Made by a program: the position numbers and the translations under genes
Source: an uncultured Candidatus Rokubacteria bacterium
GTDB lineage: Bacteria; Methylomirabilota; Methylomirabilia; Rokubacteriales; CSP1-6
DNA length: 64,000 nt
Reading direction: 5' to 3'
NCBI GenBank assembly: GCA_963789955.1
Contig: CAWBMV010000034.1
Coordinates: forward strand, 800,001-864,000
In this document: in pieces, positions 51,781 to 57,236 of the stretch
Numbering within the stretch: the stretch's first letter is position 1
How the letters are laid out: the number at the start of each line of letters is the position of its first letter
Notes under the pieces: model-generated
What the model was told of the DNA's origin: nothing
The model's input: only the letters and a program-made list of their open reading frames with translations
The model's database searches: none

Positions 51781-53481
51781 GGAGCCGCTGGCGCGGCAGA
51801 GGAGCGGCCAGAGCCTCGTCGAGGCGCTCGCGGCGGCCGCCCCTCGTTACTCTCCCGACGATCGACCGCGCAAGGTCGATGCTCCTGGAGGAGCTCGACG
51901 GCGCCATCGTCCGCGACGCGCGAACGCTTCTTCGCCTGCACGAGACCCTGTGCTTTCTGCAGGCGTACCCCGACGACGCCAAGATTCTCGAGCTGGTCGA
52001 TCGCGCGCTGGAAACGTTCGCGGCCCGGGTCGATCGACTCGGGCCCGCCGCGCGCCGGCGGCTCCACGATTCCGGCGTCGCCCACAGCACGCTCGATTAC
52101 CCCTTCGGCTTTCCGATGGCCCGCTGGCTCGCCGCGCGATTCCCGCGCGAGACCGAGGTGGCCTGGGCCGCGTTCGTAGACGCCGACCGGCTGGACGAGA
52201 CGCTCTCGCTGCTCGCGACCACGGCGGAAGGCGACGCCTTCAGCGAAGGCGGGATGGGGTGGCGGCAGTGGATTCGCGTCGCCAAAGGCGATCGCCGTCT
52301 CAGCGACGTGCAGCTGATCCTGGAATTGTTCGAGCGCGCGCGGCTGCCCGAGGAGACGCGCGACTGGCTCTTCGAGAGCCTCGGTCTGCCGATCCTCTGG
52401 CGGACGCGGGGCGCGGGCGGCTCGAGGACACTCGCGCGGGTCCCGGCGGGCTCCACGTTCTTCCACGCCGGCGCGCTCGAGCGCGGCGACGTCGATCTCG
52501 TCGAGGCGATTCGGGAGCCGCTGCCTCTCAGACGAGCGCCACGGCCGCTCGCCGAGACGATGATCGACGCCGCGCGTCTGGCGATGGCCACGCGCCAGCG
52601 GGAGCTCCACGCGTTCGCGTACCCGAATCCGGACGACGTGCTGGTGGCGGACGCGGGCCGCGGCCTCCGGCTCGTGTTCATCGGCATCGAGCCGGACTTC
52701 CGGCTGCCGCTCGAGGGTTACTACGGCTTCCTGGCGCTGAAGAACGGCGTGCCGGTGAGCTACGGCGGCGGGTGGGAGCTCTTCGGCGCGCTCGACTTCG
52801 CCATCAACATCTTCGCGTCGTTTCGTCAGGGCGAGTCGCCGTACCTGGCGACCCAGCTTCTGCGCGCGTACCGGTTCATCTTCGGCATGCGCACGGTGGT
52901 GATCGACCGCTACCAGCTCGGCCACGAGAGCACCGAAGCGCTGCGCTCGGGCTCGTTCTACTTCTATCATCGGCTCGGTTTCCGCCCACGCGACCCCGGC
53001 GTCGTACGCACGCTCGCCGAGGAGCGGGCGAAGATCGTCGCCGATCCCGCCTACCGCTCGCCGATTCCGGCCCTGAAACGGCTCGCCGCGGCTGAAGTCT
53101 TCCTGACACTCGCCGGCGGTCATCCAGCGCCCGAGGATCGCCTGCGCGCAACGGACGTTTCGGCGCTCGTCGCGCGCTACGTCGCACGCGAGTTTGGCGG
53201 CGACCGCGCCCGGGCCACACGCGACTCGGCTGAGCGTGTCGCGCATACGCTCGGCGCGCGACGGCGCAACACCTGGCCGCCCGGCGAGCGTCGCGCCTTC
53301 GAGCGCATGTCGCTCGTCGCCGCGCTCATTCCGGATCTTTCGGCCTGGTCGCTCGCCGAGCGCCGTGCCCTGCTCGCGGTCATGCGCGCCAAGGGAGGCG
53401 GGACCGAGATGGCCTACGCGCGACGGCTCGATGGGCATGGCCGCCTGCGTCGAAGCCTCGAAGCTGCTCGCGCGCGCGTAG
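51761..53481 (+). CDS. Conserved-looking hypothetical protein with a possible GNAT-like C-terminal region (frameshifts near both ends)
   Basis: Long ORF 51879 onward with LRLHETLCFLQAYPDD, LKNGVPVSYGGG and GSFYFYHRLGFRP; probable true stop KLLARA-TAG at 53481. Confidence 0.6.
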
Positions 53482-53532
53482 CCTCTCCATATCACTGGCC
53501 CGGTGTTCTAGCTCCGGCCTGTAAGTTTTCGC

Positions 53533-53579
53533 TTGACAGGCACTTTCAATACTCCGTATGGTTTCAGCAGATGCTGAAA
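53533..53579 (+). promoter_or_regulatory. Promoter plus palindromic operator of the AbiEi-like gene
   Basis: TTGACA-18nt-TATGGT, overlapped by the perfect inverted repeat TTTCAGCA-GA-TGCTGAAA (53562-53579). Confidence 0.7.
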
Positions 53580-53598
53580 TGTTCGGAGCAAGAGAAAG

Positions 53599-54648
53599 GT
53601 GCTGAAATCCGAGGAGGTTCGGCGACAAGTGGCCCAGAGACTTCGGGAGCTTCTCCCGAAGGCGAAAGGCTGGCAGGAGAGCATCGGCTCCAAAATAGGC
53701 GGACAAGTCGTCGATTTGTTGGCCAGATTCCAGCTGGCCGGCCAGGAGCACACGTTGGTCGTTGAAGTGACGCCTCTCGGCCAGCCACGCCAGATCAGGG
53801 CCGCCGTGACCAGGCTGAACGACATTCGACGGGAGCTTCCGGGCGCCTATCCGATGGCCGGCGCCGTCTATATCGGCCCGCAGAGCGCGCGAATCCTCAA
53901 GAGCAACAACCTCGGCTTCGTGGATCTCTCGGGCAACTGCTACCTCGCCCTGGAGAACGCGCTGATCGAGAAGGAGGGCAAGCGGAACGTCCGGCCCTCG
54001 ACGCGGCCCCTTCGCTCGCTCTTCGCCCCCCGCGCCACGCGCGTGATCCGCGTGCTGCTGGTCGAGCCCGACCGGGCGTGGCGGCTGGAGGAGCTCGGGC
54101 GCGCCGCCGAGGTGAGCCTCGGCCACTCGCACAACGTGATCAAGCGACTCGAAGAGCTCGCATGGGTCGAGCGTGACGACAGCCAGCGGTTCCGGCTCTC
54201 GAAGCCGGCCGACCTGCTCGAGGGGTGGTGCGAGTCGTACACGTATCGAGCCAACGAGCGTACCTCGTATCTCGCTCCGGAGCGCGTCACGCGAAAGTTC
54301 ATGGGCGAGGTCGCCCGGGTCGCGGGCGCCGAGGGGCGCCGGTACGCCTTCACCTTGAACGCCGGCGCCGCGTTGCTGGCACCCAGTCTGAGATTGCCGG
54401 CCGTTCACTGCTACCTCGAGGGAGACCCCGCGCCGGTCGCTCGCACGCTCGGGCTGCGACCGGCCGCGGAGGTCGACGGAGCGCTCCACTTGCTCGCGCC
54501 CTACGATCTCGGCGTGTTCTACGGCGCCTTCGAGAAGGGCGGGCTCAAGGTGGTGTGCTTGCCGCAGCTGTACGCCGATCTCGTGCACTACGAGCGCCGC
54601 GGACGGGAGCAGGCCGAGCACCTGCGGCGCGAGGCGATGGGCTACTGA
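53599..54648 (+). CDS. Type IV TA AbiEi-family (DUF2186/AbiEi_2-like) antitoxin/transcriptional regulator
   Basis: GFVDLSGNCYL, wHTH WRLEELGRAAEVSLGHSHNVIKRLEE, LLEGW, YAFT..GA, PQLYADL..RGREQAEHL. Confidence 0.75.
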   Translation: MLKSEEVRRQVAQRLRELLPKAKGWQESIGSKIGGQVVDLLARFQLAGQEHTLVVEVTPLGQPRQIRAAVTRLNDIRRELPGAYPMAGAVYIGPQSARILKSNNLGFVDLSGNCYLALENALIEKEGKRNVRPSTRPLRSLFAPRATRVIRVLLVEPDRAWRLEELGRAAEVSLGHSHNVIKRLEELAWVERDDSQRFRLSKPADLLEGWCESYTYRANERTSYLAPERVTRKFMGEVARVAGAEGRRYAFTLNAGAALLAPSLRLPAVHCYLEGDPAPVARTLGLRPAAEVDGALHLLAPYDLGVFYGAFEKGGLKVVCLPQLYADLVHYERRGREQAEHLRREAMGY

Positions 54649-54672
54649 ACGATCGCGGAAGGAGGTGATCTA

Positions 54673-54711
54673 GTGGCCAAGAAGAAGGCGACGAAGAAAA
54701 AGAAGAAGTAG
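54673..54711 (+). CDS. Lysine-rich micropeptide MAKKKATKKKKK (12 aa)
   Basis: AAGGAGGTGATC SD immediately upstream of GTG; 8 Lys codons; TAG stop. Confidence 0.65.
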   Translation: MAKKKATKKKKK

Positions 54712-54767
54712 ATCCGATCCGATGAGGGCGGCACCGAGCTTGGACACGGAAGGAGGTGAGACGCTCG

Positions 54768-54800
54768 ATGAAGAAGAAGGCCAAGAAGAAGAAGAAGTAG
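54768..54800 (+). CDS. Lysine-rich micropeptide MKKKAKKKKK (10 aa)
   Basis: AAGGAGGTGA SD upstream of ATG; 8 Lys codons; TAG TAA double stop. Confidence 0.65.
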   Translation: MKKKAKKKKK

Positions 54801-54846
54801 TAACGCGGCTGCGCTTGGTGGGGGGTGGCGGCCTCCCACCGTTGAC

Positions 54847-54880
54847 CATGCGGGAGGGGGCCAACGCCCCCTCCCGCGTG
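54847..54880. terminator. Long hairpin between the convergent micropeptide unit and rpmB
   Basis: CATGCGGGAGGGGGC-CAAC-GCCCCCTCCCGCGTG, a 15-bp stem with one G-U pair; a second hairpin lies at ~54817-54840. Confidence 0.65.
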
Positions 54881-54888
54881 TGCTGTGC

Positions 54889-55080
54889 TTAAATGACCTT
54901 CGTGACCTTGCCGGCCTTGAGGCAGCGGGTGCACACGCGCACGCGCCGGGGCTTTCCAGCCATCATGGCGCGCATCGAGACCAGATTCGGAAGCCACCGC
55001 CGCCGTGTCAGCTTGTGAGCATGGCTGATCGTGTTCCCGACGGAGGGGCCTTTTCCACAGACGTCGCAGCGCTGAGCCAT
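54889..55080 (-). CDS. rpmB: 50S ribosomal protein bL28 (zinc-binding form)
   Basis: MAQRCDVCGKGPSVGNTISHAHKLTRRRWLPNL...VCTRCLK. Confidence 0.95.
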   Translation of the reverse strand: MAQRCDVCGKGPSVGNTISHAHKLTRRRWLPNLVSMRAMMAGKPRRVRVCTRCLKAGKVTKVI

Positions 55081-55145
55081 TTGTGCTCCCTGGAATTGAG
55101 TTTCCGAGGACAGAACCGAAGGCACTGTATAGCACAGGGGCCGCC

Positions 55146-57236
55146 ATGAAGCAAACCGCCGCGGCGTCGAATCTCGCGACGCCTCTGCAGTTCGTCAAAG
55201 GCGTCGGCCCGCAGCGCGCGGGTCAGCTCGAGCGGAAGGGGCTTCGCACCGTCGAGGACGCCCTCTTCTTCGTGCCGCTCCGCCACGAGGACCGAACCCG
55301 GCTGACGCCGTTCCGGTCGCTCGTCCCCGGCCAGGCCGCGACGTGCTCGGGCACGATCGTCGGCGTGAGCCCGCCGCCGCCCGGACGGTTCCGCGTGCCG
55401 TTCACCGTCATGCTGCGCGACTCGAGCGGCTACGCCACCGCCAGCTGGTTCGGCTGGCGGTATCTGTCGCGCGTCCTCAAGCGCGGCCAGCAGCTCGTGC
55501 TGCACGGCCGTGTCGGGCGCTACAAGGGCGCGATCGTCCTGCAGCAGCCGGACTACGAGATCGTCGAGAACGGCGAGGACGAGCGCCTGCACACGGGCCG
55601 CCTGGTCCCGGTGTATTCGCTCACCGAGGGGCTGCCCCAGCGCGCGCTCCGCTCCATCATGTGGCGGCTCGTCGAGGCGCACGCCGCCGAAGTGGAAGAG
55701 GTGCTTCCCGAGAGTGTTCGCGGGCGACGGGGACTCGTCGGACTCGCGCAGGCGATCAAGGACGCGCATTTTCCCGAGACCGATGCGGCACTGGCGGCGG
55801 CGAGCCGCCGCCTCTCGTTCGACGAGGGCCTGCTGCTCCAGCTCGGGCTCGCGATCCTGCGTTCCCGGGTCGCTCGCGCGCGCGGGCTGGCGCTGAATCC
55901 GCGGGGCGATCTGGTCGCGCGGCTGCGCGCGCGGCTGCCGTGGAAGCTGACGGGGGCGCAGGAACGCGTGTGGGAGGAGATCCGCCGCGACATGGCGGAG
56001 CCGCACCCGATGCATCGCCTCCTGCAGGGCGACGTCGGCTCAGGCAAGACGATCGTGGCCGCCCAGGGGGTGCTGACGGCGATCGAAGCCGGCTACCAGG
56101 CGGCGGTCATGGCGCCGACCGAGATCCTGGCCGAGCAGCACTTCATGACGTTCCGCCAGCTGCTCGAGCCGCTCGGTGTGCGTCTGACCCTCTTGACCTC
56201 GTCGCTCAAGCCGAGCGAGCGGAAGGCGCGGCGCGCCGTCCTGGCCGCGGGAGAGATCGAGTGCGTGGTGGGCACCCACGCGCTCGTCCAGGAGGGCGTC
56301 GACTTTCGCCGCCTCGGGCTCGTGGTCGTCGACGAGCAGCACCGGTTCGGGGTCGAGCAGCGCGCGCGGCTGCGCGGGAAGGGCGAGCACCCCGATCTCC
56401 TGGTGATGACGGCGACGCCGATTCCGCGCACCCTGGCTCTCACGATCTACGGCGACCTGGACGTGTCGGTGCTCGACGAGCTACCGCCCGGACGCCGCCC
56501 GATCGTCACCGTCGCCCGCTCGGAGGGCAAGCGCCGCGCGATCTACAAGTTCCTCAGAGAGCAGGTCGCCGGCGGCCGCCAGATCTACGTGGTCTACCCG
56601 CTGGTCGAGGAATCCGAGGCGCTCGACCTCAAGGCGGCGACCGACATGGCGCGTCACCTCGCGGACGAAGTCTTCCCCGATCTCACGGTCGGCCTGCTGC
56701 ACGGGCGTCTCGGCTTCGAGGAGAAGGACGCGATCATGCAGCGCTTCAAGGCCGGCGAGATCGACGTGCTCGTCTCGACGACCGTCATCGAGGTCGGCAT
56801 CGACGTGCCGAACGCATCGGTCATGCTGATCGAGCACGCCGAGCGCTTCGGTCTCTCGCAGCTGCACCAGCTGCGCGGACGCGTGGGGCGCGGCGAGTGG
56901 AAGTCGTACTGCATCCTGCTCACCGCCGGCCGTCTCACCGAGGAGGCCCAGCGGCGGATCGACGCGATGACCTCCACGAACGACGGCTTCCGTATCGCCG
57001 AGGTCGACCTCGAGCTGCGCGGCCCGGGCGAGTTCTTCGGCACGCGGCAGTCGGGGCTCCCGGAGTTCCGGGCGGTCGACATCCTGCGCGACACGAACCT
57101 GCTCGAGGAGGCGCGCCGCGAGGCGAGCGCGATCATCGCGCGCGACCGCGAGCTGTCGGATCCGGCGCATCGTCCGCTCCGCGCCGCGTTGCTCGCACGC
57201 TGGCGGGGCAAGCTCGCGCTGGCGACTGCCGGCTAG
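55146..57236 (+). CDS. recG: ATP-dependent DNA helicase RecG
   Basis: KGVGP, LQGDVGSGKT, APTEILAEQH, DEQHRFG, TATPIPRT, QLHQLRGRVGR. Confidence 0.96.
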   Translation: MKQTAAASNLATPLQFVKGVGPQRAGQLERKGLRTVEDALFFVPLRHEDRTRLTPFRSLVPGQAATCSGTIVGVSPPPPGRFRVPFTVMLRDSSGYATASWFGWRYLSRVLKRGQQLVLHGRVGRYKGAIVLQQPDYEIVENGEDERLHTGRLVPVYSLTEGLPQRALRSIMWRLVEAHAAEVEEVLPESVRGRRGLVGLAQAIKDAHFPETDAALAAASRRLSFDEGLLLQLGLAILRSRVARARGLALNPRGDLVARLRARLPWKLTGAQERVWEEIRRDMAEPHPMHRLLQGDVGSGKTIVAAQGVLTAIEAGYQAAVMAPTEILAEQHFMTFRQLLEPLGVRLTLLTSSLKPSERKARRAVLAAGEIECVVGTHALVQEGVDFRRLGLVVVDEQHRFGVEQRARLRGKGEHPDLLVMTATPIPRTLALTIYGDLDVSVLDELPPGRRPIVTVARSEGKRRAIYKFLREQVAGGRQIYVVYPLVEESEALDLKAATDMARHLADEVFPDLTVGLLHGRLGFEEKDAIMQRFKAGEIDVLVSTTVIEVGIDVPNASVMLIEHAERFGLSQLHQLRGRVGRGEWKSYCILLTAGRLTEEAQRRIDAMTSTNDGFRIAEVDLELRGPGEFFGTRQSGLPEFRAVDILRDTNLLEEARREASAIIARDRELSDPAHRPLRAALLARWRGKLALATAG

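Follow-up and report, generated by a model that had tools for sequence, protein, structure and literature searches.

What does a bacterium make from two minute, lysine-rich reading frames that lie in tandem behind some of the strongest predicted ribosome-binding sites of its genome? The frames in question lie in a 64,000-nucleotide stretch of DNA from an uncultured Candidatus Rokubacteria bacterium, analysed here at its full length and called the window, which belongs to an assembly of 6.77 Mb that is 87% complete. A first-pass annotation of the window had proposed highly translated polycation genes and listed several possible roles for them. Here we compare this locus with its relatives and weigh these and other roles.

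Two micro-ORFs and their ribosome-binding sites

Micro-ORF1 (54673..54711, + strand) begins with GTG and ends with TAG after 12 codons, 8 of which specify Lys. Micro-ORF2 (54768..54803, + strand) begins with ATG and has 10 codons, likewise with 8 Lys, followed by a double stop (the coding part including TAG spans 54768-54800, and TAA comes directly after it). The two tandem Lys-rich frames, each with a near-perfect Shine–Dalgarno (SD) sequence, are thus present at 54655-54803 as the first-pass annotation had described them. Both SDs are carried by the 12-mer GGAAGGAGGTGA, which has exactly two copies in the genome, both at this locus. When paired with the anti-SD of this same genome, the extended SD of ORF1 (54658..54669, + strand) reaches a predicted -21.4 kcal/mol, and that of ORF2 (54749..54759, + strand) reaches -18.2 kcal/mol. 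The 12-nt match to the anti-SD that precedes ORF1 also exists in two genome copies, the other being the 16S rRNA tail itself.

We ranked these sites by pairing the 18 nt upstream of each start with the genome's own 16S tail and comparing the result with the best start of each of 4530 long ORFs, a set picked by a GC-position heuristic that comprises ORFs of at least 150 codons and so leaves short genes outside it. The SD of ORF1 is equalled in strength by none of these ORFs and ranks 1st, which agrees with the earlier observation of a 12-nt match with none stronger in view, and the SD of ORF2 is equalled by two and ranks 3rd. The region spanning 54640-54900 has a folding z-score of -3.98 relative to 200 shuffles.

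A genome-wide scan for short Lys-rich ORFs revealed a third copy on another contig (G000:C6:252638, - strand; the C6 copy). This third copy, the identity of the gene upstream of the micro-ORFs and an operon promoter with a conserved palindrome all go beyond the first-pass annotation. The C6 copy differs from ORF1 by four synonymous changes and no missense change, so that the two peptides are identical; it starts with TTG instead of GTG and has an SD that is equalled by 6 of the 4530 long ORFs. It is free-standing, with a TTGACA-17-TAGCAT promoter 76 nt upstream and a hairpin of its own, and its neighbours, named from their translations, are a divergent (B12-)radical-SAM-like gene and a convergent nrdR-glyA pair. 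Layout and promoter are repeated in related genera. A promoter scan 5′ of the micro-ORFs gave 22 of 152 loci where 8.5 were expected, an excess that is not general because it is largely due to related copies of this free-standing locus. Elsewhere in the genome, between dioxygenase-like and ABC-F-like genes, an ORF of 19 codons (G000:C22:524912, + strand) has its own SD and ends in a Lys-rich stretch; it specifies a different small basic peptide.

Conservation and composition of the peptide family

A pattern composed of an SD, a start codon and KKKA finds matches in 51 of 61 relatives and, across the phylum, in 110 of 151 genomes; these tallies include the unpublished genomes G025 and G105, and kin within them are not independent of each other. 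The reversed pattern, used as a control, matches nothing in all 61 relatives and 151 phylum genomes. A frame-free pattern, in which the SD, KKKA and KKK-stop are fixed and both gaps are free, returned at least 116 loci in GTDB genomes and at least 120 in metagenomes. Among the matches listed, every one (124 of 124 from genomes and 125 of 125 from metagenomes) has a gap whose length is divisible by three and a start in frame, and starts in other frames number 4 + 4 in the genome cases and 3 in the metagenome cases. This uniformity indicates that selection acts on the peptide. SD, start and frame are therefore kept in relatives, and together with the choice of stop codon their conservation speaks for coding sequence rather than a slipped microsatellite, as the first-pass annotation had judged. 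Its proposal of polycation genes is well supported by these features, and the high translation that it also envisaged is a prediction from them.

The peptides of 362 records (178 distinct) have 10-27 residues, with a median of 14, and consist of 65% K, 24% A, 4% T, 2% G and 2% P, with 1% Arg and 3 acidic residues in all 362 records, a composition partly fixed by the search pattern. A search of L001-L060 with a constraint on the start alone gave 80 distinct hits. After the fixed KKKA, a stop follows within 5-15 codons in all 80, and the unconstrained tails contain 75% Lys and 0.9% Arg, where the long ORFs of the genome contain 2.7% Lys and 9.3% Arg. The stops in these 80 hits are TAG in 50, TAA in 30 and TGA in none; in the long ORFs of the representative genome, TGA makes up 61% of stops overall and 35% of those that follow Lys. 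Pairs of AAA codons are fewer than expected in all three GC classes (27 versus 32.7, 20 versus 28.7 and 3 versus 6.4) and more numerous than expected when a smaller set is pooled over GC classes (34 versus 26), and runs of A extend to at most 9. The low use within each class fits clean read-out of the tracts and not sliding (PMC4363877).

Copy number ranges from 1 to 3 per locus. Two ORFs are present in 69 of 84 distinct Rokubacteriales blocks and one in the other 15, a count that loci ending early may lower. This free variation in copy number and in peptide length favours a dose of charge over a precise fit. Five relatives of 20-23 residues have no Pfam hit at E ≤ 10, and NCBIfam gives no hit for the two relatives submitted. 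An exact look-up of five relatives of at least 20 residues in a protein collection found one, named ‘hypothetical protein’. The literature searched, which had most subscription papers outside its scope, contained no description of the family.

Titles of 80 of the matches listed, in which lineage names are the labels of metagenome-assembled genomes (MAGs), include Acidobacteriota, Planctomycetota, Verrucomicrobiota, Nitrospirota, Chloroflexota (Limnocylindria), Eisenbacteria, Eremiobacteraceae and Levyibacteriota, as well as Zixibacteria, Fraserbacteria, Bipolaricaulia, FCPU426 and four archaeal bins. At three loci (L073, L100 and L131), the context of the micro-ORF fits a phylum other than that of the bin label, so these are probably mis-binned; the serS neighbour of L073, for example, is the same as in Levyibacteriota loci. 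Because some bins look mis-binned in this way, the archaeal range is one of MAG labels only. The strict pattern has no match in viral contigs, and plasmids gave no blastn match. We rejected viral carriers after a looser pattern yielded six matches that look like noise: two are out of frame and two lack a start (one row does both), and none is pure Lys/Ala.

Together, these comparisons indicate that the peptides, Lys/Ala(/Thr/Gly/Pro) sequences of 10-27 residues, are encoded by true genes, that their family is widespread and unannotated, and that the micro-ORFs are almost certainly translated.

An antitoxin-family regulator upstream and hairpins downstream

The sole promoter-like site in the interval 53300-55300, where 0.2 would be expected, is a sigma-70-type promoter (53533..53562, + strand; TTGACA, 18 nt, TATGGT) that precedes the upstream gene and the micro-ORFs. 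Its -35 box is kept in an alignment of 47 orthologous upstream regions. Overlapping the end of the -10 box and the likely transcription start is a palindromic, operator-like element of 18 bp (53562..53579), with 7-bp arms and a 4-nt spacer, which is perfect in 46 of the 47 promoters and has its sole perfect copy in this genome here. Of 121 genomes of the order, 117 carry the palindrome, 115 of them at a single site and two (G119 and the unpublished G025) at two sites; its reversed control gave one hit. The promoter of the C6 copy lacks this palindrome. A 628-codon ORF (51879-53765, + strand), whose first 504 residues have no Pfam hit, runs through the operon promoter into the upstream gene; another frame stops at 53481, and a frameshift or assembly error near the 3′ end of the long ORF is possible.

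The gene downstream of this promoter (53599..54648, + strand) encodes a 349-residue homologue of AbiEi_2-type antitoxins and putative autorepressor (PF09952, E = 2.3e-6, over the cut-off), whose Atlas neighbours are all AbiEi_2. A model made from a 47-row alignment (pLDDT 89) has a PD-(D/E)xK-like N-terminal fold, a winged helix and an AbiEi_2 C-terminal domain; its best fold hits, to NucS/EndoMS and IclR/MarR, are partial, with TM 0.2-0.26 over the whole query. Only 1 of 40 orthologues, as against 7 of 7 aligned paralogues, has kept the lysine of the E-x-K motif in the nuclease-like fold. The first codons of the gene (53600-53607) repeat one half-site of the operator, and 30 of the 47 orthologues share three residues after the first.

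Type IV AbiE systems, which pair an AbiEi antitoxin and autorepressor with the nucleotidyltransferase AbiEii, share with this locus a winged-helix gene of the AbiEi_2 family and an inverted repeat in the promoter. Unlike them, the locus has no AbiEii gene beside the regulator, where the micro-ORFs and then convergent rpmB are found instead; it has lost the lysine of the nuclease motif; and it is inherited at a fixed position across the order. There is no PF08843 (AbiEii) hit anywhere in the genome, at its 87% completeness. As a control, of eight more distant AbiEi_2 paralogues of the phylum, seven are followed by AbiEii and one by a weak nucleotidyltransferase hit, and none by a micro-ORF. AbiEi and Rv2827c repress their own synthesis through inverted repeats in their promoters (PMC7319586). 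Because the proteins shown there are of the COG5340 type, we infer autorepression for the AbiEi_2-type protein of this locus. The simplest reading would be that the regulator derives from an antitoxin, was domesticated and now represses the operon that it heads, in which the micro-ORFs occupy the slot of the toxin.

This position invites another interpretation, in which translation itself is the function: minigenes with strong SDs would tie up ribosomes or Lys-tRNA and so brake growth once stress removes the antitoxin-like repressor. Minigenes can be toxic through peptidyl-tRNA drop-off, the micro-ORFs lie where AbiEii lies in seven of the eight paralogous loci, and the copies in Methylomirabilales and Nitrospiria follow a degenerate pair of toxin–antitoxin type (below). 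However, minigenes that are toxic mostly have fewer than 10 codons, and the choice of stops and low use of AAA-AAA suggest efficient completion of the peptide. The spacing Ala and Thr residues are retained, and the C6 copy has a strong promoter that lacks the operator. We judge a translational brake to be quite unlikely.

ORF1 begins 24 nt beyond the regulator gene, a gap that is in frame and open here and open at 26 of 53 related loci, which would permit ORF1 to be a readthrough tail fused to the regulator in the manner of a histone tail. In the same set, in which rows L006 and L116 were mis-parsed, the gap is not a multiple of three in 25 of 53 and is closed in 27 of 53. Furthermore, each ORF has its own SD, and the spacers between tandem ORFs fall freely into the three frames (22, 19 and 28 of 69). 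On these grounds we rejected a readthrough fusion, which has next to no chance of being correct.

Both hairpins that the first-pass annotation saw closing the unit were located. Hairpin 1 (54817..54840, + strand) is a near-invariant 10-bp stem in the 3′ untranslated region that begins 11-23 nt past the final stop codon; 32 of 47 distinct copies have the identical sequence. Across 41 distinct rows, 99.5% of cells are paired, and two constant G-U pairs can form only in RNA of the + strand. One compensatory change occurs, a number that 48 of 500 shuffles reach, and because the sequence barely varies the covariation is not significant. The stem probably stabilises the mRNA or is bound by a protein. 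Its 5′ arm is similar to the G-rich SD variant seen at many first ORFs, and an anti-SD core lies in its 3′ arm. Hairpin 2 (about 54847..54880) is a G+C palindrome with a variable loop that is absent in some relatives, and is probably a terminator shared with the convergent rpmB gene for bL28 (54889..55080, - strand; PF00830), which lies outside the unit. The order regulator, micro-ORFs, hairpins, rpmB and recG holds across Rokubacteriales, among which the window is placed by named loci whose neighbour genes are 52-90% identical.

Conservation of hairpin 1 beyond what pairing needs, along with SDs that are close to the maximum, would also be expected if the RNA were the product, as a ribosome sponge or a small RNA with a frozen hairpin, and the ORF incidental. 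The first-pass annotation had listed a ribosome-sequestering RNA of this kind. Such a role would leave unexplained why frame and start are kept in 249 of the 249 matches listed and why ORF1 and the C6 copy differ synonymously and not by missense. Moreover, the 3′ hairpins differ between lineages, and Rfam gave four weak hits, all far below cut-off. An RNA-only role is very improbable. Among the other 3′ elements, Limnocylindria (L065, L079, L104, L108 and L111) and Eisenbacteria (L063, L093, L096, L126 and L140) each have a near-invariant motif of their own that is unlike the Rokubacteriales hairpin.

Neighbourhoods change with lineage. In Methylomirabilales and two Nitrospiria bins (21 loci among the matches listed), one to three micro-ORFs lie downstream of a gene for a wHTH-nucleotidyltransferase and another for a HEPN protein. 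Inspected by eye, four of five nucleotidyltransferase domains lack GS...DxD (the fifth has GS and D-x-N) and four of five HEPN proteins lack R-x4-6-H, which we take to be the motifs of the two families. In Nitrospirales (9 loci among the matches listed), the micro-ORFs follow a gene with a coiled coil and a HARE-HTH domain. Each of these two groups has, again by eye, a conserved TTGACA promoter and its own palindrome-like motif (17 and 5 informative rows, respectively). In other lineages, the neighbours are unrelated and include an ECF sigma factor, a response regulator, serS/secA, an MqnA-type gene and a PolB-like exonuclease, and the upstream winged-helix gene is missing at most copies outside Methylomirabilota. 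The peptide gene therefore does not depend on a winged-helix regulator.

A short ORF rich in one amino acid and followed by hairpins could also be a leader-peptide attenuator or a sensor of Lys-tRNA for a downstream gene, and in a planctomycete (L062) a micro-ORF does lie 230 nt upstream of a co-oriented lysA-like gene. L062 is the sole such case among the matches listed, and the micro-ORFs of this genome are followed at each of their two loci by a convergent gene, not by the co-oriented, amino-acid-related gene of known attenuators; both facts disfavour a Lys-sensing leader and the Lys-tRNA or stalling sensor of the first-pass annotation. Hairpin 1, in addition, is a fixed local stem. An attenuator is very improbable.

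Candidate functions of the peptides

The closest resemblance in composition is to the histone-H1-like proteins of bacteria, namely Hc1/HctA and Hc2/HctB of chlamydiae and the Hc2-like proteins of Bordetella, Burkholderia and their relatives, which have the same Lys-rich low complexity with Ala, Thr and Pro spacers and almost no acidic residues. As described in PMC2848022, Hc2-type proteins are built of Lys/Ala/Thr/Pro pentamers, condense DNA, bind RNA and have 165-237 residues, and their length varies by repeat units, as peptide length varies here. The micro-ORF peptides share the composition lacking acidic residues, but give no profile match and fall far short of the ~150-240 residues of that family. 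They are instead stand-alone products of 10-27 residues, made from one to three tandem copies with extreme SDs and without a dimerisation or globular domain, and their binding to DNA is predicted. The tails of HupB and AlgP are further histone-H1-like sequences in bacteria, and polyamines and protamines are other small polycations that neutralise nucleic acid phosphate. The peptides differ from the last two in being ribosomally made Lys chains, neither metabolites nor Arg-rich.

This genome has five HU/IHF genes, SpeD, SpeE and deoxyhypusine-synthase-family hits among its polyamine genes, and three bS21 (rpsU) paralogues (G000 C1:460726, C12:386781 and C34:52436). With HU/IHF and SpeD/SpeE-type genes present, the peptides fill no obvious gap, and we rejected the replacement of missing bS21, HU or polyamine genes because all are there. 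PF08213 (bS22) and PF17070 (bTHX) have no hit anywhere in the genome and therefore none at the micro-ORFs. Given this whole inventory, the peptides are no plain substitute for a missing known part.

The absence of bS22- and bTHX-family hits, at 87% completeness, is also what would be expected if the peptides were small ribosomal or ribosome-associated proteins of the bS22, bTHX and eS32/eL41 class, or hibernation-type factors in an rRNA pocket. Members of that class are likewise very short, very basic and easily missed by gene callers, and rpmB adjoins the micro-ORFs here. The extreme SD would then serve ribosome-linked control, as for rpsU in Flavobacterium; in Bacteroidota, a ribosomal protein gene under autoregulation is distinguished by such an extreme SD (PMC9976891). 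Several observations point the other way. The length, internal sequence and copy number of the peptides vary freely and Arg is at 1%, whereas bS22, bTHX and eS32/eL41 are fixed in length, single-copy and Arg-rich. No PDB chain matched the one 23-mer tried, three bS21 genes are already present, and adjacency to rpmB, from which the first-pass annotation had drawn its ribosome-binding peptide, is limited to a single order, Rokubacteriales, with other neighbours in other lineages. A ribosomal role is unlikely.

The near-exclusion of Arg points to amine chemistry, and a B12-radical-SAM-like gene is divergent from the micro-ORF at the second locus. Both would suit a peptide that binds another polyanion (polyphosphate, anionic lipid or acidic proteins) or that serves as a lysine store or a substrate for modification. 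However, no modifying enzyme or transporter is common to the lineages compared, and the peptides have neither a signal peptide nor a leader/core structure. We regard this group of roles as unlikely.

Of the options in the first-pass annotation, a nucleic-acid binder fits best; the link to rpmB is not general, Lys sensing is disfavoured and an RNA-only role leaves the kept frame without an explanation. The explanation we prefer, which has about an even chance of being right, is that the peptides are abundant free polycations, similar to histone H1 tails, that act on DNA and RNA at a dose set by autorepression. In this mechanism, the strong sigma-70 promoter would transcribe the regulator, ORF1 and ORF2 up to the hairpins, and near-maximal SDs and tandem copies would raise peptide output far above that of the regulator. 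As a domesticated homologue of a type IV antitoxin, the regulator would bind the palindrome and repress its own operon, thereby setting the peptide dose, and the C6 copy would supply peptide from a separate promoter that lacks this palindrome. The peptides would then bind phosphate backbones of DNA and RNA without sequence specificity, causing nucleoid compaction and charge neutralisation.

Contigs that bridge the end of the regulator gene and the ORFs are present in four RNA libraries of soil or sediment, which come from four studies and in which DNA carry-over is possible (among them X1 record 4, covering 54410-54777 with 3 differences, X2 record 13 and X6 record 29). Summed contig depth peaks over the ORFs, although this peak includes Lys-rich sequence of other organisms and such contigs cannot rank genes or show level.

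The micro-ORFs thus represent a real, undescribed gene family, probably a histone-H1-like kind of polycation reduced to 10-27 residues and expressed here from an apparently domesticated toxin–antitoxin operon. A bolder and more doubtful extension is that these are ‘tail-only micro-histones’: oligolysines of 10-27 residues in many uncultured phyla, perhaps including archaea, under different winged-helix regulators in at least three lineages (two of them disarmed toxin–antitoxin modules), with a feedback loop in which the repressor senses the state of the peptide-coated DNA and so sets chromosome compaction. If true, such genes would be among the most strongly initiated of their genomes. Gene callers miss oligolysine micro-genes, and tryptic proteomics misses their products because trypsin would shred the peptide. 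The peptides are trivial to synthesise, and among the matches listed the family is carried by close relatives of the cultured or enriched Methylomirabilis, Nitrospira and Limisphaera, which makes these proposals directly testable. If the micro-ORFs are translated as their signals suggest, lineages that are abundant in soil and groundwater, among them Rokubacteriales, Methylomirabilales, Nitrospirota, Acidobacteriota, Verrucomicrobiota and Limnocylindria, make a major cellular polycation. This polycation would be a new component of bacterial chromatin or translation, and its operons would provide a clear case of toxin–antitoxin modules turned into housekeeping regulators.
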